Shown: one piece after another, positions 1,106-18,208 of the stretch
Layout: the number at the start of each line of letters is the position of its first letter
How positions within the stretch are numbered: the stretch's first letter is position 1
NCBI GenBank assembly: GCA_048939465.1
Contig: JBHLPL010000006.1
Location: forward strand, 1 to 32,000
DNA length: 32,000 nt
From: Promethearchaeota archaeon
GTDB taxonomy: Archaea; Asgardarchaeota; Odinarchaeia; Odinarchaeales; JBHLKK01
Direction: 5' to 3'
Program-made: the position numbers and the translations under genes
Notes under the pieces: model-generated
The model's database searches: none
Told to the model about the DNA's origin: nothing
Seen by the model: the letters and a program-made list of their open reading frames with translations, nothing else

Positions 1106-1271
1106 TCACCCAGAGAACAGTGAGCGGATTAGTAAATAAATCTACTCAAAAGAACGGTGGTGTTTAGTTCAGAAGAGTTTTGCTAGATGAAGAGCAAGTC
1201 AATCCATATCAGACTATTTGCACCAGAAGGTTTTTGTTCTAGAAACACAGAATAGTCATGGGCGGGCAACC

Positions 1272-3926
1272 TTGTCATACACTCCAAGACTCGACCAATT
1301 CGCTGCCGATAATGAAGATTCTGACAGAACAGAGAAACGATCTTCGCCGTCTGAACCTGTCAAGACAAAGTCGGGAAGTGAAAGAACAGAACCTGATACT
1401 CAAAGAGTTACGCCAATGAATACAGATCCTTGTCTTCTTCTGAGCGTTTCTTACGACGGTAAGAAAGAGCGTGCCTTTGCACGGCTTTATGACCTTGAGA
1501 GTAGGAATCTCTACTTCTGGTACGATAATACGAACCATAAGCCTTACTGCATATCCGATTTGGGCGAAGAGGAACTTCGCAACATGCCCAAAATTGTCAA
1601 CCATAGAGGCTTCTCCGGTTTTGAGACAGTAGAGAAGTCTGATCTTCTGCATGACAGAGATATTAAGGTAACCAAAATCATCGCAAATGATCCCCTTTCT
1701 ATAGGAGGCAGTTCAGGATCAATACGAGACATACTAACAGGGGAGAAACTGAAAGTCTGGGAGGCATATATACGTTATCACCACTCCTACATTATGGATC
1801 GGGGACTCGTTCCTGGGCTTCTTTATCAGATTAGGCAAGGGAAGCTTGTCCAGTCAGACGTTAAACTCCCGGAAAATGCTCAAAAAGAGATTCTAAGCAT
1901 TTTCTCTGATGAGCAAGAAGAATTCAAGAAACTCGCGTTGGAATACTCTCCGATATTTCTCCAGCCTGCTCCAGATATTCGCCGGGTTGCTATTGATATC
2001 GAGGTTTATACGCCAGTTGCAGACAGGATCCCTAATCCTGCTGAGGCCGAATATCCTGTGCTGGCAACTTCGATAGTATCAGACGGCGGTATCAGAAAAG
2101 TACTGGTGTTGGAGTCGCAAGATATGGAAAAGGGAGATCCCCCTGAAGATCTTCCGAAAGATGTTACGGTGGAGTTTTTTGATGATGAGAGAAAACTCAT
2201 CTCAGAAGTGTTTAGAGTCTTGGGTGAATACCCGCTTGTTCTGACATTTAATGGGGACAACTTCGATTTCAATTACCTTTGGCATAGGGCACATAGGCTA
2301 GGTTTTTCTAGGGAGGATATTCCAATTATATTGGGAAGAGATTCTGCGTCATTGAGATACGGTGTTCACGTAGATCTTTATCGGTTCTTTCATAATCGGT
2401 CAATTCAGATCTACGCCTTTTCCAGAAGATATCAAGATAGTAGGCTGAACACCATAACAAGGGCTTTGTTGAATGTTGGCAAAATAGAATTGCAGAAGGA
2501 CATATCGCGATTAACTCTTTATGAATTAGCTCATTATTGCTGGAACGACGCACAAATTACTTTTGATTTGACGACATTTAGCAATAGTCTTTCGCTGAGA
2601 CTAATCTTACTACTTATGCGGATTTCACACCTGCCAATTGAGGATGTTACAAGACAAGCAGTATCGGGATGGATCAAAAACTTATTCTATTTTGAGCACA
2701 GGAAGAGGGGATATCTAATACCGCGACCTGAAGACATAATCCAGGAAAAAGGGGAGACTTCAACCAAAGCCATAATCAAAGGCAAGAAATACAAGGGAGC
2801 TGTAGTAATCCCCCCCGTCAAGGGTGTTCACTTCGAGGTTACAGTTCTGGATTTCGCCAGCTTGTACCCGAGCATAATAAAGCGATTCAACCTATCTTAT
2901 GAGACCATACGCTGCCCTCATCCGGAGGACCGAAAAAACCCAATTCCTGAAACAGATCACTGGGTCTGCACCAAGAAATTGGGTATAACGTCCCTAATAA
3001 TTGGCCTCCTGAGGGATGTGAGGATTAGCTGGCTAAAACCCAAATCAAAAGACAAATCCATATCAGAGGAAGTCAGAAACTGGTACTCTGTTGTGCAGCA
3101 AGCCTTAAAGGTATTTCTAAATGCAAGCTACGGCGTGTTTGGTGCAGAAATCTTTCCTTTGTACTGTCCGCCGGTGGCGGAAAGCACTGCCGCTATAGGT
3201 CGCTTTTCAATCATGAAGACGATTAAGGAGGCTCAAGATCTGAAGGTCCCCGTCATTTACGGCGATACCGATAGTGTATTTTTACTGAGTCCCGACAGAG
3301 AGCAAATAGCTGAGTTGACTAAGTGGAGTTCGGAAGAACTAGGTATAGAATTGGATGTAGATAAAGTATACCGATATATTGCTCTTTCCGAACGGAAGAA
3401 AAACTATCTCGGTGTTTTCGAGGATGGATCGGTAGACATAAAGGGACTTACAGGAAAGAAGAGAAATACTCCAGCCTTTCTACAGGAAGCATTCTTGGAA
3501 ATGATAGACGCCCTAAGCGAAGTGAAGTCCCCTAAGGAGTTCTCCGAAGTTCGTGAGAAAATCCACGATATTGCACGGGAGAGCTACCGTAAGCTGGAAA
3601 GTCGAGAGTACAGTTTAGAAGAGCTGGCTTTTAGAGTTCAGCTGAGCAAGTCTGTCGGAAGTTACACTAAAACCACTCCTCAGCACGTAAAGGCAGCAAA
3701 GCAGCTTGTCGAACGGAAGAAAGAGGTTAAAGCTGGGGATATAATTACTTTTGTTAAGACAAAGAAAGAACCCGGCGTTCGCCCAATTGAAATCGCGTCC
3801 CTTAAGGACGTAGATATAGAAAAATACAAGGGTTATATACGGACCACCTTTGAACAGGTTTTGGATGCCGTAGGAATTGAGTTTCAAGAAATAGTCGGGA
3901 CGAGAAAGCTCTCTGAATTCTTCTAG
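1272..3926 (+). CDS. polB1: Family B DNA polymerase, PolB1 subfamily
   Basis: Exonuclease motifs DIEV, FNGDNFD and YCWNDA; polymerase motifs DFASLYPSII, KVFLNASYG and YGDTDS; PolB1-type WYDNTNHKPY and GLTGKKRNTP; C-terminal PIP-like RKLSEFF. The ORF is open from 1218; TTG 1272 is the preferred start by inference. Confidence 0.95.
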   Translation: MSYTPRLDQFAADNEDSDRTEKRSSPSEPVKTKSGSERTEPDTQRVTPMNTDPCLLLSVSYDGKKERAFARLYDLESRNLYFWYDNTNHKPYCISDLGEEELRNMPKIVNHRGFSGFETVEKSDLLHDRDIKVTKIIANDPLSIGGSSGSIRDILTGEKLKVWEAYIRYHHSYIMDRGLVPGLLYQIRQGKLVQSDVKLPENAQKEILSIFSDEQEEFKKLALEYSPIFLQPAPDIRRVAIDIEVYTPVADRIPNPAEAEYPVLATSIVSDGGIRKVLVLESQDMEKGDPPEDLPKDVTVEFFDDERKLISEVFRVLGEYPLVLTFNGDNFDFNYLWHRAHRLGFSREDIPIILGRDSASLRYGVHVDLYRFFHNRSIQIYAFSRRYQDSRLNTITRALLNVGKIELQKDISRLTLYELAHYCWNDAQITFDLTTFSNSLSLRLILLLMRISHLPIEDVTRQAVSGWIKNLFYFEHRKRGYLIPRPEDIIQEKGETSTKAIIKGKKYKGAVVIPPVKGVHFEVTVLDFASLYPSIIKRFNLSYETIRCPHPEDRKNPIPETDHWVCTKKLGITSLIIGLLRDVRISWLKPKSKDKSISEEVRNWYSVVQQALKVFLNASYGVFGAEIFPLYCPPVAESTAAIGRFSIMKTIKEAQDLKVPVIYGDTDSVFLLSPDREQIAELTKWSSEELGIELDVDKVYRYIALSERKKNYLGVFEDGSVDIKGLTGKKRNTPAFLQEAFLEMIDALSEVKSPKEFSEVREKIHDIARESYRKLESREYSLEELAFRVQLSKSVGSYTKTTPQHVKAAKQLVERKKEVKAGDIITFVKTKKEPGVRPIEIASLKDVDIEKYKGYIRTTFEQVLDAVGIEFQEIVGTRKLSEFF

Positions 3927-6769: not shown

Positions 6770-7036
6770 GCCTCACCAAAATCCAACATGAACAAGCAAG
6801 GTTTCTTCTCTCTGAAAAATAAATGTTGACTCGATTTAGGTAGTTCTAACGGATTAATCCTCTTCCTTCCCTGTTTTTGGCGCCCCTGACACTACGTGGA
6901 TAATACCAGAAGATACCAGTAAGAGCAAAAAGCAACAAAAGGAAATTACTTCTTGTCTTCTGACCTCTGATCGGACTCTCTTGGGAAAGCAAAGATTTAA
7001 ATATAACACCGTTATAATATCTCTCGGGAGTTGTAC

Positions 7037-8221
7037 ATGAAGAGAACGGTATATATGGACAATGAGAGATCAACTCAAGTGGCAAAAGAAGTCTTAGACT
7101 CTATGGTTCCCTACTTCACAGAGTATTATGGTCATCCGGCTTCAATTCATGGACTGGGAGAGCGAGCGCATGATGCAATTGATGAAAGTGCAGAGACAAT
7201 AGCTCGATCAATAAATGCAGGATCCAATGAGATCGTTTTTACCTCAGGAGGGACAGAGGCAAGTGATTTGGCAATAAGAGGCATCATCTACGCCAACAAA
7301 GACAAGGGTAGACACATGATTACGTCTAGAATTGAGCATCCATCAGTGATGAGAATAACAGAAGAGCTTTCAAAACAAGGGTTTGAGGTCGACTATGTCA
7401 ACGTAGATGAGAAGGGTTTCGTAGACCTAGAGGAATTGCAGCAGCTGATTAGAGATGAGACTGTTTTGGTAAGCATAGCGCATGCAAACCACGAGATTGG
7501 ATCGATTGAGCCAATAAAGGAAGTAGGAGAGATATTAAGAAACCAGAATCATAAGATATATTTTCATGTTGATGGCCAGTCATCCTATACAAGACTCCCC
7601 ATAGATGTTGCAGAATTCGATCTGGATGCATTAACGCTAAGCGCACATAAAATACATGGTCCCAAAGGTGTGGGTGCGCTCTATCTGAAAGAGAAGACAA
7701 AGATTGATCCGATACTCTTTGGATATGTCTCGCTATCAACATTAAGACCCGGAACAGAGAATGTCCCAGGAATAGTCGGCTTTGCAAAGGCTGCTGAGAT
7801 AGCTTTAAAGAATATCGATGAATATGTGGCTCATATGAGGAGTCTAAGAGATGAATTGCTTGAAAGGATCGGAGAAACTATCCCTGAGACTTTGCTTCAC
7901 GGTCCGAAAGGAGACAGGCGAAGTCCGAGCAATGTTAATTTCTCTTTTAAGTACATAGAGGGAGAATCAATAATGATGTATTTGAATATGAATGGGGTGT
8001 ATGTATCAACAGGCTCTGCTTGTGCGTCACGAAAACTGGAGCCGAGTCATGTCCTGACAGCAATAGGAGTGCCAATAGAGATTGCACATGGATCAATACT
8101 GTTTGCTCTAAGCAGGTATAACACGAAGGGTGATGTTGAATATGTACTCGAAGTTCTCCCGAAAGTTGTTGGCCATCTGAGAAGTATGAGTCCCTTATGG
8201 GACAAAAAGCACGAGAGGTAG
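7037..8221 (+). CDS. iscS: Cysteine desulfurase, group I (IscS/NifS)
   Basis: FTSGGTE, PLP-lysine motif SAHKIHGPKG, catalytic STGSACAS loop; GGGAG SD before ATG 7037. Confidence 0.95.
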   Translation: MKRTVYMDNERSTQVAKEVLDSMVPYFTEYYGHPASIHGLGERAHDAIDESAETIARSINAGSNEIVFTSGGTEASDLAIRGIIYANKDKGRHMITSRIEHPSVMRITEELSKQGFEVDYVNVDEKGFVDLEELQQLIRDETVLVSIAHANHEIGSIEPIKEVGEILRNQNHKIYFHVDGQSSYTRLPIDVAEFDLDALTLSAHKIHGPKGVGALYLKEKTKIDPILFGYVSLSTLRPGTENVPGIVGFAKAAEIALKNIDEYVAHMRSLRDELLERIGETIPETLLHGPKGDRRSPSNVNFSFKYIEGESIMMYLNMNGVYVSTGSACASRKLEPSHVLTAIGVPIEIAHGSILFALSRYNTKGDVEYVLEVLPKVVGHLRSMSPLWDKKHER

Positions 8222-8226
8222 GAAAA

Positions 8227-8622
8227 ATGGGAATTAAGTACAATAAGAAAGTGATGGAGCACTTCATGCACCCAAGGAACGTTGGAACACTCAAAGATGC
8301 AGATACCGTCATAGAAGAAGGTAATCCGGTCTGTGGCGATATGCTTAGGATGTATCTGAAGATTAAGGATGGCAAGATTGAGGACATAAAATTCCTTTCT
8401 TTTGGTTGTGCGGCGAACATTGCAACAGCATCCGTTATCACGGAACTAGCGAAAGGAAAGACTTTGGAGGAAGCGAAGAAGATAGGTATGAAAGATGTAG
8501 CAGAGAATCTTGATAATCTTCCGCGTATAAAGATGCACTGCGCAGCCCTGGCTGCCAAGGCCCTGCAAAAGGCAATAGAGGAATTCAAAGAACACGAAAA
8601 GGACAGAAAGGTCGAGGAATAG
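8227..8622 (+). CDS. iscU: Fe-S cluster scaffold IscU/NifU
   Basis: EHFMHPRNVG, NPVCGD, FGCA and LPRIKMHCA; 5 nt downstream of iscS. Confidence 0.95.
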   Translation: MGIKYNKKVMEHFMHPRNVGTLKDADTVIEEGNPVCGDMLRMYLKIKDGKIEDIKFLSFGCAANIATASVITELAKGKTLEEAKKIGMKDVAENLDNLPRIKMHCAALAAKALQKAIEEFKEHEKDRKVEE

Positions 8623-8916
8623 TCAGTCAGAACCACCATGAATAAATGGAAGAATAACAACAATATCGTTATCTGATATTTTTGTATCGAGTCCTTCCAA
8701 TGCTGAAATCTCACGGTCATTGACTAGGATCAGAAGACCACTTCTTATATGGTCTCCGTCATCAAAGAGTTCAGACCTTAATTCTTTCTTAACATTCTTT
8801 GCTAGGATTCTTAGAAAGCCTTCAAGTCGAATTTGACCTGGTACTCTGATACTTATTTCTGGCGTTTCACTCAGTCTCCTCAAGTGAGCATAGAAACGAA
8901 CCCTGACTCGTGACAA
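8623..8916 (-). CDS. MoaD/ThiS/SAMP-family ubiquitin-like protein with a GG-Ser-Asp C-terminus
   Basis: Beta-grasp pattern VRVRFYAHLRR...ILVNDREI...LDTKISDNDIVVILPFIHGG followed by SD and the stop. GAGGA SD before TTG 8916. Confidence 0.88.
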   Translation of the reverse strand: MSRVRVRFYAHLRRLSETPEISIRVPGQIRLEGFLRILAKNVKKELRSELFDDGDHIRSGLLILVNDREISALEGLDTKISDNDIVVILPFIHGGSD

Positions 8917-9005
8917 TATCCATCCTCTCAGTGTCAAAGCAGATTTAGAGAATAGATAAAGTTTTTGTGTATGCTCGTCTATAAAAAGTATTCCGAGGCT
9001 ATTCG

Positions 9006-10142
9006 GTGGACGAGATGGAAATCACTTCATTCAAGATAAGGTATCCAAAGTTGGAGGATGACTGTACTCTTGTCAAAGGTGTCGTCAGGAGTCTAGAAGA
9101 GATGAGAGAAGATGAAATAACTTTTGTCGAACCATGTGCTGCAGAGGTAGGAAGGCTCATGGCCAAAATAACCCTTTCTGATGAGAAAGCTCAGAAACAG
9201 GGACTCTTTTTCGACAAGAGTATGTTGTGCGAGCTCTTTGAAGCATTTAAGGAGAGATTCTCCGAATTTGAATGCAGTAAGCTATTAGGCATAGTCAGGA
9301 TAAAATGGAGAGGAAAGAACATATCACTCTTTGCTAGTGGCAGAATAAAAATCTCAACAGCCTTGAGTGAGGAGGACATCATGCGAATGCTTCACGATAT
9401 CACTCGCTTGTCGTGGGGGGCAATGATCTGCAGCGTTTGCGGCAGTCCGGCGATATATTGTGCTTCCGGAGCCTGCAATAAGTGTATTATTCACCAAGGA
9501 GATGAAACAAAAGAGGCCTTTGTCAGCGGCAAGCTACCAGGTCTGATTCTGACAAATGCCCTAAACCAAATGGACCAAGCTATAAAAGAGCTGGAAGTCA
9601 ATTATGAGAGACTCTTAAATAGGTTGATTAAGCAAGAGAAGAGTGACATATCACTTAGAGCTGCCTTGAAAAAGACATTGAAGACAGCCCAACTGAGCTT
9701 AGAATATATTCTTAGAGTAAGCAGCCCCGAAGATGCCCTAGCAGGATTCATGGTGTTGGGTTCTTCATGGAACCTCAGAACGGTGCTTGAAGCCGTGAAA
9801 TGTATCTATGAGGAGATGGAAGCAGTCTGTGTCTTCTTTCAGGAAGTTGATAGAACTCTTAGAGATTCTCTGTATAGTCTGTTAACGGGAGTGAATACAG
9901 TTCTTTCAATACTCTCTACCGGCTTCATGATCTTTGATAGAGAAGCCAGAGATTCTCTCGAAAGAAGAATCGGACTTCTCAAGAAAAGATTTCAAGACTT
10001 CAATAGAGGCAGTTTAGAGACACCAAAAAGACAAAAGGTTTTAGATACCTTGATCCATCTTATTGACTCGTTCTTAGCATTTGCACATCACCTATCCAAG
10101 ATTCTCGGGGTGGAGTCTTTTGACAAAGGTGGAAGAGATTAG
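9006..10142 (+). CDS. Hypothetical protein with a five-Cys cluster and a helical C-terminal half
   Basis: 378 aa; CSVCGSPAIYCASGACNKC; its 3' end overlaps the sufS start. Confidence 0.8.
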   Translation: MDEMEITSFKIRYPKLEDDCTLVKGVVRSLEEMREDEITFVEPCAAEVGRLMAKITLSDEKAQKQGLFFDKSMLCELFEAFKERFSEFECSKLLGIVRIKWRGKNISLFASGRIKISTALSEEDIMRMLHDITRLSWGAMICSVCGSPAIYCASGACNKCIIHQGDETKEAFVSGKLPGLILTNALNQMDQAIKELEVNYERLLNRLIKQEKSDISLRAALKKTLKTAQLSLEYILRVSSPEDALAGFMVLGSSWNLRTVLEAVKCIYEEMEAVCVFFQEVDRTLRDSLYSLLTGVNTVLSILSTGFMIFDREARDSLERRIGLLKKRFQDFNRGSLETPKRQKVLDTLIHLIDSFLAFAHHLSKILGVESFDKGGRD

Positions 10143-11343
10143 AGCAGACTTTCCCATTTTGAGAAAGCGAAGGAAAAGAGATGATAAACCGTGCATATAT
10201 CTTGATAATACTGCGACAAGCCTGAAGCCCAGGCAGGTGATAGAAGCAATTGTGGATTACTACGAAAATCACTGTGCGAATATCCATCGTGGGGTCTACA
10301 GACTCTCTCAAGAAGCCTCCAGACTTTACGAAGAAGCTCATGATACGGTTGCCAAATTCATAGGTGCAAGGAATAGGACTGAGATGAGTTTTGTTAAGAA
10401 TACAACAGAGGCAATAAACTACGTAGCGTATGGAATTGATTGGAAGCCTGACGACACGGTCATAGCCTCGGTCATGGAACATCACAGCAACATTGTTCCC
10501 TGGCATCTAATAAGAGAGAAATTCGGGATAAAGATAAAATACGTGCCTTTGAGAGACAACTGGTACCTTGATATTGACCAGTTGGAGGCATTAATTGATG
10601 ACAAAACCAGACTTGTCACAGTAACTCAAGTATCCAACGTCGTTGGCACCATCAATCCAATTGAAAGGATATGCAAAATTGCTCACGATCATGACGCTCT
10701 ATGTCTTATTGATGCTGCCCAAGCAGTCCCTCATATGCCGGTAGATGTCAAAAGGATCGGGTGCGATTTCTTGGCGTTCTCAGCCCATAAGATGCTTGGC
10801 CCCACCGGAATTGGGGGATTATACATTAAGGAAGGAATAGCGGAGCAGTTGTGTCCAACCTTAGGCGGAGGAGACATGATACGGAACGTCACACTGGAAA
10901 GCTGTGAATGGAACGTAATGCCTTGGAAATTCGAGGCAGGAACACCAAACATAGCAGGAGGAATTGGGCTCAAAGCTGCAGTAGATTACTTAAACAGCCT
11001 GGGTATGGAGTGGGTAAGGAATCACGAAAAGGAACTGACAGGATATATGCTGGAGCAGCTCGAAGGAATCCCGAAAGTCGAAATCTATGGGCCGCGAAAT
11101 GTAGAAGAGAGGGGGGGTGTATGTGCATTCAATGTTGAAGGGTTGGATGCTCATGATGTCGCCACTTTCTTAGATGAAATAGAGAACATAGCTGTCAGAT
11201 CAGGAGTTCATTGCGCACAACCTCTACATAATACGCTTGGCATTCCAAGAACTGTGAGAGCATCCGTATACGTATATAATACGAAAGAAGAGACCGAGAA
11301 ACTGTGCGATACCTTGAAAACAATATCTGAAGAACTAGCATAG
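10120..11343 (+). CDS. sufS: Cysteine desulfurase, group II (SufS/CsdA)
   Basis: IRADFPIL, YLDNTATS, NIHRG, SAHKMLGPTGIG, FEAGTP and RSGVHCAQP; GGGGTGGAG SD before TTG 10120. Confidence 0.95.
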   Translation: MTKVEEIRADFPILRKRRKRDDKPCIYLDNTATSLKPRQVIEAIVDYYENHCANIHRGVYRLSQEASRLYEEAHDTVAKFIGARNRTEMSFVKNTTEAINYVAYGIDWKPDDTVIASVMEHHSNIVPWHLIREKFGIKIKYVPLRDNWYLDIDQLEALIDDKTRLVTVTQVSNVVGTINPIERICKIAHDHDALCLIDAAQAVPHMPVDVKRIGCDFLAFSAHKMLGPTGIGGLYIKEGIAEQLCPTLGGGDMIRNVTLESCEWNVMPWKFEAGTPNIAGGIGLKAAVDYLNSLGMEWVRNHEKELTGYMLEQLEGIPKVEIYGPRNVEERGGVCAFNVEGLDAHDVATFLDEIENIAVRSGVHCAQPLHNTLGIPRTVRASVYVYNTKEETEKLCDTLKTISEELA

Positions 11344-11555
11344 TTTAGAGCATTGCATTTCCTTTTGAAATACTGGTTTCTAAAAAGAAGCGCTACTATG
11401 TGCCTGCGGATCCTAAATAAGCTCGAACATTCAGTTAGATAATTTTCGGGGGGCAGTTCTAGAAAAACTGAGTAATTATCAATCAGAAATGCTCCTTCTT
11501 CAGTTTTACAGACTAGCTGTGAGTTAATCTTTATAATGAATCTTGTGCTCTAGTC

Positions 11556-11579
11556 TCAGTTGAATCAGAAACCAACTGA
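11556..11579. promoter_or_regulatory. Possible operator inverted repeat downstream of the moeB TATA box
   Basis: TCAGTTG-N10-CAACTGA lies about 20 nt after CTTTATAA (11529-11536). A related AAAACTGA-N28-TCAGTTTT is at 11464-11507. Confidence 0.3.
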
Positions 11580-11596
11580 AATAAGGCCGGATCTGC

Positions 11597-12328
11597 ATGT
11601 TATCAAAGGATGAATTAGCGAGATATGATAGACAAATTAGATTGCACAAGTTTGGTGTGGAGGGACAGACGAAACTTAAGAGGACAAAGGCTTTTGTTGC
11701 CGGCATCGGCGGTCTTGGATCTCCTGTGCTGTCATACCTGACATTAGCCGGGATTGGTAGCATATACTTGGCGGATGGCGATGTCGTGGAATTGAGTAAC
11801 TTGAATAGGCAAATCCTACACTGGACAAGGGACATAGGTAATAAGAAAGCTAGGTCGGCAAGAGACAAGCTTCTAGAAATGAATCCGAATGTCGAAACTA
11901 GAAGTCTCGCAGAAGTTATAACGGAGGATAACGTATCAGCGCTGGTCGGAGACAGTGATTTGATAGTTGATTGCATGGATAATTTCGAGACGAGATATTT
12001 GCTGAATCGAGTCGCATTGGAGAGGGAAATACCTCTTTTTCATGGAGCCGTCTACGGCTTCGAGGGACAAGCTACAACAATTATTCCCGGAAAAACACCA
12101 TGCCTGAGATGTATCTTTCCTGAAGCCCCGCCTAAAGAGGTTTTTCCAGTAGTCGGGGTCACGCCTGGTGTTATCGGTTGTATCCAGGCAATGGAAACAA
12201 TAAAATATGTTGTAGGAATTGGAAACTTGATAATGAATAGGCTCTTAGTATTCGATGGAATAGATATGGAATTTATGAATATTGAGGTTAAGAGAAATCC
12301 GAATTGCTCAGAGTGCGGAGATAGATAA
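11597..12328 (+). CDS. moeB: E1-like adenylyltransferase (MoeB/ThiF/HesA family)
   Basis: RYDRQI, GIGGLG, DGDVVELSNLNRQ, DCMDNF, zinc motifs CLRC and CSEC. Confidence 0.93.
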   Translation: MLSKDELARYDRQIRLHKFGVEGQTKLKRTKAFVAGIGGLGSPVLSYLTLAGIGSIYLADGDVVELSNLNRQILHWTRDIGNKKARSARDKLLEMNPNVETRSLAEVITEDNVSALVGDSDLIVDCMDNFETRYLLNRVALEREIPLFHGAVYGFEGQATTIIPGKTPCLRCIFPEAPPKEVFPVVGVTPGVIGCIQAMETIKYVVGIGNLIMNRLLVFDGIDMEFMNIEVKRNPNCSECGDR

Positions 12329-12355: not shown

Positions 12356-13840
12356 TCATATTAGAACCAATGTTTTCGAGAATAACTTCTTGAGTTCAGA
12401 TGATGGTTCGCTGCTTCTTCTAAGTATATTCAGAGTGATTTTAAGAATTGCAAAGGCAGCCAAGTCCGTGATTCTGTCTCCGCTTTCCGCGGCGTCCTTG
12501 GCTGTGCTTCTTATGATTTCAAAGAACTGCGTGTTCAGATCTCTTTTCTTCTCTTCAATCTCCGTGTTGAGTGTCCCCAAAATTGCACCTATGTTCAAGC
12601 TCATTGAGTTCAGATTCTGCGGCAAATCCGTCGATACGATTTCACATCCCTCAAGACTTAGCACACGAATACCTGTTCGCCTTATTAGTATTCTTTTGAT
12701 TGAAGGGTTATCCCTGATCTTAGTCAGTGTTCTTATGAGATGTTCAATCCCCTTGACTAGCGTTTCTTGTCTTGTCTTTAAAAGATTCCTTGCAGATCTT
12801 ATGAAAGGGAGAAATATCTCTGTATGCATGTATCGCTGATTCTTCGGGTCGCCTATCCAGACTTCTTCCTCATCAATTGCATTTTTGGCAGCACTGTATG
12901 TACTGTCTTCCACATCCTGAATACCGGAGAAAATACTGCCTAACACATCCTTATAACTCTCACTCGTAAGAGTGTTTCTGAAAGCTTTGCTTCCCTCTAG
13001 TCCTCTTGCCAGAGCAGTATCGAACTCACATATTCTTTTGAGATTCTCAAATAGCTTCGCCATAGATGAGAGCCCTTCAGAGACTCCTTGTATGATGATG
13101 TTTGAAGGAAGGCGCAGCGTTGGATCTACTTCTTCTTTTCCGTATCTTAGGAAATCGTTATAAAGATGCATCACTTTCTCGTTTTCCTTTCTAGTACTTT
13201 GCATGACAGCCAGTGTCTTATCCATTTCCGCCTGTAATCCTTTTATGGCTTCCTTGTTCCTCTCAATGTTCTCCTTGAGGTCGAGTTTGTCTTGAGTCAA
13301 TATTCTGATCTTGTGATTCAGTGCGTTGATTTGATTCGTCTGATCGACTGTTTTGTATGATAACTCAGCGTTTTCTTCCTTCAGCGCTTTTGTGTCTTCT
13401 TCAAGGAGGGTAATACGATTCTGTTTCTCGCTCAACTGATTCCGCATAGCGGAAATTTCATCTTGCGTCTTGACCAGCTGAGTCACCGTTTCGTCAAGGG
13501 GGTGAAAAATCACATTAACACGATTCTTTAATTCATCGATTTTACCTTGGATCGTAACCTGTTTTTCTTGGATGCTCTCTCCTTTAATATCCTTCTCAAT
13601 AGTCCGTATTACGGAAGAGACAGTATCACCTTCTCCCTTTGGCAATTGACCGGTTAGCAAAAGCTGATTTAGCTGTCTCTTTAGCATATCAATACTATCA
13701 TTAACCTTGGCAATGCTTTCTTTTTGCCCCAGCATATCCAAATCGATTCTTTTTGTCTCTTTGACGATTTCGGATAGTTGAACAATTAGTTTCTTCAGAT
13801 TGTCGTACGCATTTCTAAGTGATTGGGGCATTTCTTGCAT
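12356..13840 (-). CDS. Uncharacterised long coiled-coil protein, third gene of the tubulin operon
   Basis: 494 aa with near-continuous heptads at about aa 115-230. GGTGA SD before ATG; begins 29 nt after the tubulin stop. Confidence 0.85.
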   Translation of the reverse strand: MQEMPQSLRNAYDNLKKLIVQLSEIVKETKRIDLDMLGQKESIAKVNDSIDMLKRQLNQLLLTGQLPKGEGDTVSSVIRTIEKDIKGESIQEKQVTIQGKIDELKNRVNVIFHPLDETVTQLVKTQDEISAMRNQLSEKQNRITLLEEDTKALKEENAELSYKTVDQTNQINALNHKIRILTQDKLDLKENIERNKEAIKGLQAEMDKTLAVMQSTRKENEKVMHLYNDFLRYGKEEVDPTLRLPSNIIIQGVSEGLSSMAKLFENLKRICEFDTALARGLEGSKAFRNTLTSESYKDVLGSIFSGIQDVEDSTYSAAKNAIDEEEVWIGDPKNQRYMHTEIFLPFIRSARNLLKTRQETLVKGIEHLIRTLTKIRDNPSIKRILIRRTGIRVLSLEGCEIVSTDLPQNLNSMSLNIGAILGTLNTEIEEKKRDLNTQFFEIIRSTAKDAAESGDRITDLAAFAILKITLNILRRSSEPSSELKKLFSKTLVLI

Positions 13841-13869: not shown

Positions 13870-15144
13870 TTACCCACTTTTTAGATTGTCGTAGGTCTCA
13901 ATTATGTGTTGAAAAGTATCCCTTGCCTCTCTCAACTGATCTCTTGACACTCCTTCTTCCTCGTAGTGGCTTATATACCAGTTTCTCTCAAAAAGCGAAT
14001 CGAAGTTCTCCAGAACATGTTTGAATGCATCGGTTATTGCTACGTTGTTTGCAAGTAGCGTAATCTCTTTTTCGAAACCGGTGGGACTGCTCTCGCAGAT
14101 GCCATATTTTAGGCCTAAGTCTGGATGAACTCCAGGAACATAGTCCACAGTAGCTCTTATCTCATTCATAATATTGTAGATATTGTCTATTGATATTTCG
14201 CCCCGAAACATTATAACGGAAGATATTGCTGAGCCTTTATCATTACAGCTAACCATGAAATGGCTTGGGTCAAAACAACGTTCTATAAGATCTAATTCTG
14301 TAGCATCTTTCCCTTCTTCCTTGGTCAGGGGAGCCACCGCAGGAATGATGAACTTTGTCTCGGGAAGCGCAACCAAATTATGAGCCATCTCCATAAGATC
14401 CATATTCAGCTGTCCTGGGAATCTGAGAGACGCAGTTATGGATGCCATGACTCTGCCTATCAGAAAGTTAAGGTCAGAGAATTGCTTTATGAAGGGTTGA
14501 TTAAATATATCCTTCACTATTCGCATCAAAGCACTGTTATCGAACATGACGCATATGTCTGCATGTTTCATTAGATGGGTTATACTCAAAACCGTGTTGT
14601 AAGGAGCTATTGTGATGTCGTTCATACGAGCGGGCAAGACACTGAACGTCATAACACCTTTTTCCGGAAACTCCTTCTTCAGCGTTTCAGCAATTAAGGA
14701 ACCAAACCCACTTCCAGTACCTCCGCCAAGCGTATGGATTATTATAAAACCCTGTAATGTGTCTGGGACTGTGGTTTTGATTTTCTCTAGGAGGTTTGGG
14801 ATTAATCGCTTCCCAAGCTTATATCCCGTGGCCCAGACGTTATGAGCCCCCGAATAACTGAGTAACATAAGCTCTTCTGAAAAGAATTTATCAAGACCTT
14901 TTTCGCGTACCAGAAACTCAACGGCCAGTGGCTCGAGGTCAATGAACAAAGATCTTGGATGGAACCCATCCGGTGATTCGACGAGGAAGACAGATTTGTA
15001 GTCAACAATATCGGAATCCTCTTCCTTCTTCTGCAGAGTCTTCATGTCAATTCCATGTTCCGAGCATATAGTATTCCAGAAATTATAACCTATTTGATTT
15101 CCGCCCTGCCCAACATGTAGGACAAGTATCTCTCTACCAGGCAT
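13870..15144 (-). CDS. Eukaryote-type tubulin (OdinTubulin-like archaeal tubulin)
   Basis: REILVLHVGQGGNQIG..FW..I..EHGID, PRSLFIDLEP, GAHNVWATGY, LQGFIIIHTLGGGTGSG, APYNTVLS, DNSAL, LRFPGQLNMDL, and tubulin-specific C-terminal helices H11/H12. ATG 15144 is preferred over 15150 on SD spacing. Confidence 0.97.
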   Translation of the reverse strand: MPGREILVLHVGQGGNQIGYNFWNTICSEHGIDMKTLQKKEEDSDIVDYKSVFLVESPDGFHPRSLFIDLEPLAVEFLVREKGLDKFFSEELMLLSYSGAHNVWATGYKLGKRLIPNLLEKIKTTVPDTLQGFIIIHTLGGGTGSGFGSLIAETLKKEFPEKGVMTFSVLPARMNDITIAPYNTVLSITHLMKHADICVMFDNSALMRIVKDIFNQPFIKQFSDLNFLIGRVMASITASLRFPGQLNMDLMEMAHNLVALPETKFIIPAVAPLTKEEGKDATELDLIERCFDPSHFMVSCNDKGSAISSVIMFRGEISIDNIYNIMNEIRATVDYVPGVHPDLGLKYGICESSPTGFEKEITLLANNVAITDAFKHVLENFDSLFERNWYISHYEEEGVSRDQLREARDTFQHIIETYDNLKSG

Positions 15145-15161
15145 CAGCATCGCCTCTCATT

Positions 15162-16802
15162 CTATTCCAAACTAGATTTCTTTCTTGTTGAGTAAATTCT
15201 GTGTAGTTTTTTTGTAATGGTCTTACATGACGCATCATTTGATACGTATTTTGCAAAATACTCGTAAATATCATCGTAAGTGACATTGCCCATAAGCTTT
15301 TCTTTCAGCATCTCCACGCTCACAACAACGGAAAGTTCATCTGTATCAATGACGGTAACCGACGGATTGTAGGCGACGTAGATTCTCAGAACAGGATCTG
15401 AAACCGCGTTGACTTCTCCTCTTTTTATCCATCCACGCTCACCAAAACCTTTCAGCGCATTATTCACAAGGTCAATATCCTCTTCGTAAAGTGTTATTGG
15501 AAGAACGCCATGCGTTATGAAGTCCTCGCCGGTATATTTCTGTGGAATGCAGTCCACAAACATCGATATGCCTCTTATAGTTTCCTTGTTTATCCTTGAA
15601 GATCTCATTCGTATGCAGCTCTTGAGGGGTTCGTATGCCTCGATTAGGAAGCTTCCGAGCAACATGAGTTTTCGTTTAAGCTCATCCCAATCATAAGCGT
15701 TTCCATCTCCCTGAATCCATCTGTCCAGTATTATGTCAAAGTAGCTCATCAGCAATGGAGAAGGGTTCTTTAGGTTTGAGAGCAGATCTTTGATATTCTT
15801 TATGCTCGTAGAGATCGGATCTGCGATCTCTTCTAACTTCTTAGCAAAATCTTTCTCTCTTTCAGCATATTCAGAATGATCTGTCTTAAAGCTGGATATG
15901 AGCAGGTTCATTAGCTTGACTGCTCCGTCGATATCATGATTCTTAAGAATCACCCTGGGACTGATTCCTGCAGAAACGAGCATTTGCACACCTCTAACCA
16001 GTGCGATTTCTGCGTCTTTCATGTTTTCAAGGATTGGGACAGCTTTCTGCAAATACTCGTCATCAACTTCTTCCATTTGAACCTCAATCATGAACTTCTC
16101 AAGGAAGCTTTTCAGATTTCTGTTGAAGAATTTCTGCTCACTGTCAGTTATTCCTCGGACTTTCTCCGACATTTTCCTTAATTTGCTCATAACCTCAGAG
16201 CGAATCCTGATTCTTCTTTCCAAATCCCTTCTGAATTCCTTATGTTCAGAGAATTTCTTCTCAGCATTCCCTATGATTTCCAGAATCAGATCGTATTTCT
16301 CATCAACTGACTCTATGTTGCTCTTGCCTTCGGCGACCGCTGTCTTGAGCGGTCCAAGAGATGCGTTTATGCGAGATATCGCTTTTATGGCTTCGTCCAT
16401 TCCTCCCCACGATAGGTCCATGCTCTTCATCATAGCTTCCAGACTATCAAATGCGATCAAAATCTCCTCACAGCCTTTTTCCAGATCCTTCGCTCTGCTT
16501 AATACTGAATCTAGCAGCAAACCATCTCCTCGGTTTAATGTATTTTCCAGCGTTTTCAAATATGCCTCCAATTTCTTCAGCTTCTTTTTTGCGCCACCAA
16601 AAATGCCTCTTATTCCTTTCCGGACTTCTTTTACCTGCTTGGCTTCTGTTTTTAGCCCTTCTGCCCGTGACCGGAGTTCATTCAAATCTTGGGTTATTTG
16701 TCCGGGCACAAGACCTAAGGAGTCGGCCACCTTTTCCCTAAGCCATAGCCTTCGCATAAACTGGTCAATTCTTTCATTCAAAGCTTTCTGAGCTTTTTGC
16801 AA
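15162..16802 (-). CDS. Uncharacterised helical/coiled-coil protein with an alpha/beta C-terminal domain, first gene of the tubulin operon
   Basis: 546 aa, amphipathic helices over about 400 aa. GGGGT SD before TTG; its stop is 11-17 nt before the tubulin start. Confidence 0.85.
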   Translation of the reverse strand: MQKAQKALNERIDQFMRRLWLREKVADSLGLVPGQITQDLNELRSRAEGLKTEAKQVKEVRKGIRGIFGGAKKKLKKLEAYLKTLENTLNRGDGLLLDSVLSRAKDLEKGCEEILIAFDSLEAMMKSMDLSWGGMDEAIKAISRINASLGPLKTAVAEGKSNIESVDEKYDLILEIIGNAEKKFSEHKEFRRDLERRIRIRSEVMSKLRKMSEKVRGITDSEQKFFNRNLKSFLEKFMIEVQMEEVDDEYLQKAVPILENMKDAEIALVRGVQMLVSAGISPRVILKNHDIDGAVKLMNLLISSFKTDHSEYAEREKDFAKKLEEIADPISTSIKNIKDLLSNLKNPSPLLMSYFDIILDRWIQGDGNAYDWDELKRKLMLLGSFLIEAYEPLKSCIRMRSSRINKETIRGISMFVDCIPQKYTGEDFITHGVLPITLYEEDIDLVNNALKGFGERGWIKRGEVNAVSDPVLRIYVAYNPSVTVIDTDELSVVVSVEMLKEKLMGNVTYDDIYEYFAKYVSNDASCKTITKKLHRIYSTRKKSSLE

Positions 16803-16902: not shown

Positions 16903-17736
16903 TCACAAGTCAGAATTCTCGAGAAGTTTCAGACCCTTCACGTGTATTTTAATAACTGCAAAAGGAGATTTTATTGCGGATATGATATTAAATCCACAAG
17001 AGTGACTTAGCAATCTTTCTGCCGTTTTCAGTCCCTTTTTTGAGTAGGCCCTAATAATCTTCTGAAATGGAGGACTTCGTCTATTAACGTAGTAGTAGGT
17101 GTTTAGTAAGCTCCATTTGGCAGCTTCCCGTATGAATCTTCCCGCTTTTCTATCAAGGAGAAATGCCAGAAAACCGGAGAGGCTAAGAAGAACGCACATT
17201 AACAGACTTTTAAGCCACTGCTTGATATCAATATCGTGCCTTCTAATACTACTTGAAATGTCATCTCCGAATACCGTTACAACATGACTCAAAACAGAGT
17301 TAAACACCAGTTTTGACGGGGCAAGAATCTTCCCGAAAGTCCGACTTATTGAAAAAACTCTTTTGAAATCTCCTCTTAAAATGTCACCCTTTCTACAAAT
17401 AAAATGTGAGGCGAACATGCCTGTGGCTCTCTCAATAGCTCTAAACAGGCGTTCTATTCTTGTCTTTGCAGGTCTGGAGAATCCCAGAGTTGTCTCAAGA
17501 CCTTCAGCTATTCTATCAACTTTGTCAATTCTCCTCTGGCTAACAGGATCATCCAAGACTATTATCAAATCAAGGTCACTCTTTTCCGGGTCTGCGTATC
17601 CTTTCGCGTAAGACCCGAACAGCAGAATTGAGATTATTCTGTCAGCTGCTGCCTTTTTGACCATCCTGATCAGAGTATCCAAATAAGTTCTGGCCTTTTC
17701 AGGCAGTAAGATTGATCCCGGTTGTGCTTTTTTCAT
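16903..17736 (-). CDS. Pol-beta-superfamily nucleotidyltransferase with a C-terminal helical domain
   Basis: ILLFGSYAKG...SDLDLIIV (GS...DxD motif). Confidence 0.85.
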   Translation of the reverse strand: MKKAQPGSILLPEKARTYLDTLIRMVKKAAADRIISILLFGSYAKGYADPEKSDLDLIIVLDDPVSQRRIDKVDRIAEGLETTLGFSRPAKTRIERLFRAIERATGMFASHFICRKGDILRGDFKRVFSISRTFGKILAPSKLVFNSVLSHVVTVFGDDISSSIRRHDIDIKQWLKSLLMCVLLSLSGFLAFLLDRKAGRFIREAAKWSLLNTYYYVNRRSPPFQKIIRAYSKKGLKTAERLLSHSCGFNIISAIKSPFAVIKIHVKGLKLLENSDL

Positions 17737-17820: not shown

Positions 17821-18080
17821 GAGTTACTCAAGACTCCCTAAAGAGCATCCTTCTCCCTGCTTCATGCGTTTGAGGACACTTCGGCTTCAAAGAGATGAGG
17901 TTTCTGTACTGCTAATCCAGGGCTACACAGAAGGGCAAAACTTCTGTCTGATTCTCCGTACACTGTGTATCAGGCACTTACGTAGCTCTGTCAGGGGGAA
18001 ATACCGTCAAGACCTGTGTTCTCAGATTGTGTCTTGCGCTCATGCCGCTGATCAAAGCTCCTCTTGCGAGTACCTTACCC
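17821..18080 (-). ncRNA. Candidate structured non-coding RNA (~260 nt), family unassigned
   Basis: TTTAAA box 29 nt upstream (18109-18104). Nested helices CAAGAC/GUCUUG, ACAGAAG/CUUCUGU, CUGAU/AUCAG, CAG-GCUAC/GUAGC-CUG, a long-range GGUAUUUC-CCCUG/CAGGG-GAA-AUGCU helix and 5'/3' end pairing. G-U pairs favour the minus strand; no credible ORF. Confidence 0.55.
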
Positions 18081-18208
18081 AAAACCTAATTACCGAAAAA
18101 TCATTTAAAGGTACCGCAACTCACTCTTTGCCTCTCGAGTTAAGAACGTTTGCGGAGAATGTAGTAAGGACTTCGCAATTCAGTTAGAGGATCACTGTAT
18201 GCCTTCAT

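Follow-up and report, generated by a model that had tools for sequence, protein, structure and literature searches.

The tubulin gene and its surroundings

The window, by which we mean the whole 32,000-nucleotide stretch of contig JBHLPL010000006.1 analyzed here, carries an Odin-type tubulin gene on its minus strand, given in the open reading frame list as 13870..15150 (426 aa). Translation probably begins at the second ATG (15144), which yields a protein of 424 aa beginning MPGRE (13870..15144). A GAGG motif lies 8 nt 5' of this ATG (the context reads GAGGCG ATG CTG ATG CCT) and the database record of the protein is also 424 aa long, so MPGRE was taken as the start. The coordinates in an earlier, sequence-only reading of this DNA agree with it, and the strings quoted there (MPGREILVLHVGQGGNQIGYNFW, LNMDLMEMAHNL and APLTKEEGKDAT) were all found in the window. 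Pfam assigned both the Tubulin domain (PF00091; 162.9 bits, E 1.4e-47) and the Tubulin_C domain (PF03953; 60.2 bits, E 2.9e-16) above cut-off. The T1 (GQGGNQIG) and T4 (GGGTGSG) signatures, seen in alignment A3, mark the product as a tubulin proper, and its T7 loop reads NMDLME, with D249 and E252.

Two genes of the same strand enclose the tubulin gene. The upstream partner candidate (15162..16802, minus strand, 546 aa, TTG start) has its stop 17 nt before the tubulin start, and the downstream partner candidate (12356..13840, minus strand, 494 aa) starts 29 nt after the tubulin stop. A co-oriented gene for a Pol-beta-fold nucleotidyltransferase (16903..17736, minus strand, 277 aa) lies 100 nt upstream of this trio. 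The database record calls the upstream gene 531 aa, from an ATG at codon 16; the longer form is more likely, since the alignment with orthologues, 542-546 aa in length, begins at the TTG at 16802.

Several other features were observed in the window. Between the nucleotidyltransferase gene and a gene of 203 aa lies a dispersed repeat (17848-18128), of which at least 13 further copies, 68-82% identical, occur on other contigs of the genome, with copies in the same-genus genome G002 as well. The repeat had no Rfam match and folded no better than its shuffles on either strand (z 0.02 and 0.07); a 122-aa open reading frame that overlaps it had no Pfam match. A sulfur-carrier cluster (7031-12328) adjoins the tubulin operon and comprises two class-V aminotransferase/cysteine-desulfurase genes, a Urm1/ThiS-like small protein (8623-8937, minus strand) and a ThiF-type E1 (11597-12328). 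The family-B DNA polymerase gene (1218-3926) is continuous and encodes 902 aa, while in the genomes G003-G006 the orthologous open frames are 1274-1280 aa long and align with it in two separate blocks, as an intein-type insertion in them would give.

Sequence features relative to eukaryotic tubulins

We compared the window tubulin with two alpha, two beta and one gamma tubulin, named by the source names of their records, and with the tubulin of G003 (alignment A3). G003 is a closed 1.42-Mb genome, and the phmmer alignment identified its tubulin as the sequence of OdinTubulin in the PDB. The T7 loop of the window protein reads GQLNMDLMEMAHNL, in which the Glu of LNMDLMEM aligns with the catalytic alpha Glu (E254, in GALNVDLNEF) at a position where beta tubulin has Lys (GQLNADLRKL), just as the sequence-only reading had it. 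The M-loop, APLTKEEGKDAT, aligns as APLTKEEG---KDAT; it contains no Tyr and is 3 residues short of its counterparts in alpha, beta and gamma tubulin. YDNLKSG is the C-terminus, and no acidic E-hook follows it; loop and tail thus agree with the first description.

The same reading had called the protein alpha-like, a label that fits the T7 loop only. At 35-36% identity the protein is slightly nearer to beta than to alpha (32-33%) or gamma tubulin (32%), and it did not branch with alpha tubulins in the tree described below. Alignment A3 showed no alpha-specific S9-S10 insertion in the window tubulin, which has a 6-residue insertion of its own at GVHP/DLGLKYG. We rejected membership in alpha tubulin for want of this S9-S10 insertion, of an acidic tail and of a second tubulin, and because the named alpha sequence P0167 belongs to a clade that does not include the protein.

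Orthology to OdinTubulin

A phmmer search against the PDB placed OdinTubulin chains at the top (7EVB, 7EVG, 7EVH and others; E ~1e-211, 704 bits), in keeping with the closeness to OdinTubulin that the sequence-only reading had claimed. The next matches were BtubB (2e-76), AtubB and beta tubulins (~1e-76), with the bit score falling from 704 to 261. A library clustered at 50% identity gave the same picture, with the whole Odin group reduced to one representative at 741 bits and the next single-domain protein at 266 bits. The window tubulin is 71% identical to that of G003 and 94% identical to that of a same-genus MAG, and is hence not the published Odinarchaeum gene over again.

We placed the protein in a maximum-likelihood tree of 94 rows (quick search, LG+C20; artubulins left out), in which the alpha, epsilon, gamma and beta groups were labelled by source names, BtubB by its PDB entry and the Atub sequences from their loci. 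Twelve rows, the window protein among them, formed an Odin clade with 100% SH-aLRT support and a long stem of 1.01; the alpha, beta, gamma, epsilon, Atub and BtubB groups lay outside it. Inside this clade the window protein fell with its own genus in a sub-clade of four rows (99%). Branching with CetZ or FtsZ, which would have contradicted the initial description, was not seen: the window tubulin stands apart from the genome's own FtsZ pair on a branch with 100% support. An FtsZ/CetZ identity was rejected on that separate branching, on the presence of Tubulin_C and on a TIGR ftsZ score of 28.6 bits against a cut-off of 295. It has been suggested that Odin tubulins may be orthologous to AtubC (PMC13394414). 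Our tree leaves the position of the Odin clade among the other tubulin groups unfixed and places the presumed AtubC of the genome G160 on a long branch; it neither confirms nor contradicts that suggestion.

Judged by its sequence, the window protein is an orthologue of the solved OdinTubulin and no new kind of tubulin. The short M-loop and the missing tail, pointed out in the sequence-only reading, are already family traits in the solved protein.

A single tubulin in the genome

The genome of the window spans 1.96 Mb in 152 contigs and is 91% complete. Searching it with PF00091 returned three matches, namely the window tubulin and a pair of FtsZ-like frames (406 and 391 aa). The single tubulin gene first noted in the operon is thus also the only one in this 91%-complete genome, where PF00091 revealed no heterodimer partner on any other contig. 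Among 400 Asgard genomes, strong tubulin matches were confined to six genomes of the window's order and to G160 and G078. Both of the latter carry adjacent tubulin pairs (G160, a genome of 6.0 Mb, has four copies).

Given a completeness of 91% and an assembly in 152 contigs, there is strictly still room for a partner tubulin in the unassembled part, with which the window protein would work as an alpha/beta-like pair. We regard such a pair as extremely improbable. The closed 1.4-Mb genome of the sister family gave one tubulin (with a protein query) and two FtsZ-like matches, a 2026 paper finds the Odin tubulin gene in one copy in every odinarchaeial genome known (PMC13394414), and paired Asgard tubulins are adjacent to each other, as in G160 and G078, whereas no second tubulin adjoins the gene here. 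A tubulin acting without a paralogous partner is accordingly the reading that we retain. Membership among the paired prokaryotic tubulins (BtubA/B, AtubA/B) was likewise rejected, the neighbors here being non-tubulin coiled-coil proteins.

Conserved flanking genes

We compared all open reading frames of the window by BLAST with 14-20 kb around the tubulin gene in G001 and G003-G006. The trio, there consisting of a 545-aa gene, the tubulin gene and a 490-aa gene, has the same order in all these genomes and in two further metagenomic lineages, and was kept at every Odin-tubulin locus examined. Orthologues of the nucleotidyltransferase (33% identity) stand upstream of the trio in the other family too, and a ThiF gene stands downstream in both families. 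Between the two families the tubulins are 69-72% identical, the flanking proteins 25-32% and the C-terminal domains of the latter 31-36%. In G002, a genome of the same genus, one contig starts partway through the 546-aa gene (G002:C97:5-1124), so the seeming absence of tubulin and cassette from that genome reflects an assembly break, not a loss. In LCB_4-type loci of the other family, a gene for a KaiC/RecA-like ATPase (PF06745, 252-260 aa) lies between the nucleotidyltransferase and the 545-aa gene (L053:4501-5262, L017:12463-13245 and L018:7200-7958). This ATPase is absent from the window cassette, and the rest of the genome holds only distant ATPase relatives (24-28%).

In both flanking proteins the C-terminal domain is the conserved part. 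The 546-aa protein was modelled with a pLDDT of 86.9 and a pTM of 0.68 as antiparallel helical bundles stacked one after another as far as about residue 340, followed by a mixed alpha/beta domain; the model includes a helix-strand-helix-hairpin segment at 427-495. Its N-terminal ~340 aa contain an invariant Gly/Lys patch, G-I-[RK]-G-x-[FL]-G-x-x-K-K, and its conserved C-terminal ~205 aa the motifs CIP..Y..E.FI...LP and GERGWIKR.E. We rejected a Walker-A reading of the Gly/Lys patch, the spacing of which does not fit GxxxxGK[ST]. The model of the 494-aa protein (pLDDT 69.5) shows a single long predicted helix at about 90-236, as an N-terminal coiled coil, and the conserved C-terminal ~255 aa are all-helical, with the motifs LRLPS, RY.HTE.F.P, LIRRTGIR and a terminal S-[ED]-L-x-K-L-F. 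A membrane-targeting amphipathic helix at this C-terminal tail was also considered and rejected, its hydrophobic moment (0.30-0.41) being that of the protein as a whole (mean 0.35).

A 2023 study described both neighbors for LCB_4 only and called them specific to that genome, likening the upstream one to Prc1 in its N-terminus and to Snf8 in its C-terminus and the downstream one, annotated as Smc, to ATG16 (PMC9871819). Our own sequence and profile searches of Pfam, NCBIfam and the PDB with the two C-terminal domains returned nothing, and a protein-atlas feature search with both gave no usable match. The N-terminal halves had sub-threshold coiled-coil matches only (ATG17, FPP, SMC, EzrA and SKA1), a word-based homologue search recovered only close relatives of the flanking proteins, and the two showed no homology to each other. 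PF04157 (EAP30), the family of the ESCRT-II Snf8/Vps22 winged helix, matched on other contigs of the genome and not in the 546-aa gene. An hhalign comparison of the upstream protein (alignment A4) with 10 Asgard EAP30 proteins was not significant (probability 0.9%, E 0.06, 28 columns around GERGW/kGW).

Profiles built on the two C-terminal domains matched exactly the six tubulin-bearing genomes of the order among the 400 Asgard genomes (E 1e-101 to 1e-130). No other match fell below 2e-3 in these 400 genomes, and none was obtained in the Atub-bearing G160 and G078. The earlier proposal that lateral contacts may depend on the flanking proteins is supported as far as linkage goes, in the conserved trio and in strict co-occurrence; binding itself would follow only by extension. 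A complex prediction of the tubulin with both C-terminal domains speaks neither for nor against it, as the score proved not specific when an unrelated chain was swapped in.

The flanking genes might instead be conserved neighbors with no physical or functional tie to a tubulin that acts alone, as it does in vitro. OdinTubulin does polymerize by itself in the test tube (PMC8956254). The flanking proteins, moreover, belong to no recognizable tubulin-binding family, and their sequences (25-32% identity, against 71% for the tubulin) have changed much more rapidly, as those of loosely constrained neighbors would. Yet gene order, orientation and narrow spacing persist in two families whose surrounding genes differ, and each C-terminal domain is confined to genomes that have this tubulin, 6 of the 400 Asgard genomes. 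We consider mere adjacency unlikely, though it is the most serious of the alternatives weighed here. From gene linkage, the two flanking rod proteins are probably working partners of the tubulin.

Host lineage

GTDB-based kinship places the window genome in the same order as G003-G006, in another family and another genus. The sequence-only reading had raised the possibility of a new host lineage for this clade. By this kinship, what stands of it is a separate family in the order of the genus from which the solved protein comes, and the extension is modest at most. The public names of the closest relatives (JBHLKK010000006.1 and protein P0004) conflict with this kinship and look wrong or generic.

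Those names could also be taken at face value. The NCBI titles of the 94%-identical proteins read 'Candidatus Hodarchaeota archaeon' and 'Promethearchaeota archaeon', which would suit a horizontal transfer of the cassette from Odinarchaeum-like archaea into a host of a truly different Asgard group. The family-B DNA polymerase (PolB) would suit it as well, being no closer to the Odinarchaeum genus (53% identity) than to other Asgard genomes (55-58%), a comparison that involves one gene and does not discriminate. Against such a transfer, the GTDB-based kinship puts the genome in the order of the genus with the solved protein, and the upstream nucleotidyltransferase and downstream ThiF genes are also common around the trio, as inherited synteny predicts. 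Divergence of the flanking proteins is in the range of ordinary proteins, and the cassette has no genes of mobile elements next to it. A transfer is hence very unlikely in our judgment, and we prefer an Odin-type tubulin resident in a lineage that is sister to the Odinarchaeum genus.

Proposed polymer and mechanism

The residues Asp248, Glu251 and His101 of OdinTubulin have been assigned to activation of the hydrolytic water and binding of the second cation (PMC8956254). Their counterparts D249, E252 and H101 (window numbering) are invariant in 10 Odin tubulins, as are the T1, T4 and T7 motifs (alignment A6). Members of the clade differ in the H1-S2 loop and at M-loop positions 275 and 278-281, which would suit lateral contacts of a kind other than that of microtubules. 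The solved protein polymerizes in a GTP-dependent manner, with straight protofilaments that curve after hydrolysis (PMC8956254). Alone in vitro it forms tubules of ~100 nm made of short curved protofilaments, an assembly known only for the LCB_4 protein (PMC8956254).

These features suggest how the window protein may work. GTP would be bound by the canonical T1-T6 loops, and subunits would assemble head to tail into a homopolymer. Every subunit would contribute a T7 acidic pair (D249/E252; D248/E251 in the solved protein), so that each longitudinal interface could be competent for GTP hydrolysis. In alpha/beta tubulin, only alternate longitudinal interfaces can hydrolyze GTP. Hydrolysis would then curve the protofilaments, as in the solved orthologue. 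With an M-loop 3 residues short, lacking Tyr and variable, and no acidic tail, neither a canonical microtubule lattice nor E-hook-dependent partners would be expected. The C-terminal globular domains of the two operon-encoded rod proteins may bundle, cross-link or anchor the protofilaments and so provide higher-order organization, a role suggested by gene linkage.

As each subunit has a catalytic T7 and no second tubulin was found, a homopolymer that would hydrolyze GTP at every interface is the best-supported reading, by analogy with the biochemistry of an orthologue that is 71% identical. The GTP-hydrolyzing homopolymer put forward from the sequence at the outset thus appears reasonable, the T7 acidic pair and His101 being invariant across the clade. 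Taken as a whole, the account of an OdinTubulin orthologue in a sister lineage of the Odinarchaeum genus, together with the homopolymer and partner mechanism proposed for it, seems to us very likely to be correct.

A bolder version would treat the nucleotidyltransferase, the 546-aa protein, the tubulin and the 494-aa protein as one module, a self-contained cytoskeleton restricted to the Odin order. The flanking proteins, for which no relatives were detected elsewhere, would serve as its own microtubule-associated proteins that cross-link, template or anchor protofilaments, and the 100-nm tubules would not be the cellular form. We advance this version tentatively, giving it slightly less than an even chance.

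Significance and comparison with known systems

Odin tubulin is among the few prokaryotic proteins close to eukaryotic tubulin. An orthologue diverged to 71% identity separates the constrained surfaces of the protein, its invariant nucleotide and T7 sites, from the variable M-loop and H1-S2 loop. New here is the finding that neighbors once called specific to LCB_4 accompany the tubulin throughout the order and are absent from the rest of the 400 Asgard genomes searched. This conserved module of three or four genes offers two concrete candidate partners to co-express with OdinTubulin, and these may also explain why the tubulin alone forms structures unlike microtubules.

FtsZ with its coiled-coil or spectrin-like regulators, such as EzrA, is one system that was compared. 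The flanking proteins match these regulators no better than they match designed helical bundles (Pfam EzrA, 16.3 bits against a threshold of 39.6), and the window tubulin has no FtsZ-type C-terminal peptide. AtubA/B/C of Lokiarchaeum and Heimdallarchaeia and BtubA/B with BtubC are, like the window tubulin, bona fide prokaryotic tubulins encoded in small operons; BtubC in particular sets a precedent for an operon-encoded partner that is not a tubulin. AtubAB and BtubAB are, however, adjacent paralogue pairs that form mini microtubules, whereas the window tubulin is single.

The window protein resembles eukaryotic alpha- and beta-tubulin in its domains (Tubulin and Tubulin_C), in its GTP loops and in the catalytic Glu of T7, which is of the alpha type. 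It differs in its clade, in its low identity (32-36%) and in having no heterodimer partner, and also in its shorter M-loop, its 6-residue insertion and its lack of the S9-S10 insertion and the acidic tail.

The closest likeness is to OdinTubulin itself, as encoded by G003. The window tubulin differs from it in residues of the M-loop and the H1-S2 loop, and its host is of another family with a larger genome (1.96 against 1.4 Mb). The two proteins are otherwise of almost the same length and have in common an identical stretch of 23 N-terminal residues, the T7 sequence NMDLMEMAHNL, the 3-residue M-loop deletion and the absence of an acidic tail; both are encoded by a single-copy gene that stands between the same pair of flanking genes.
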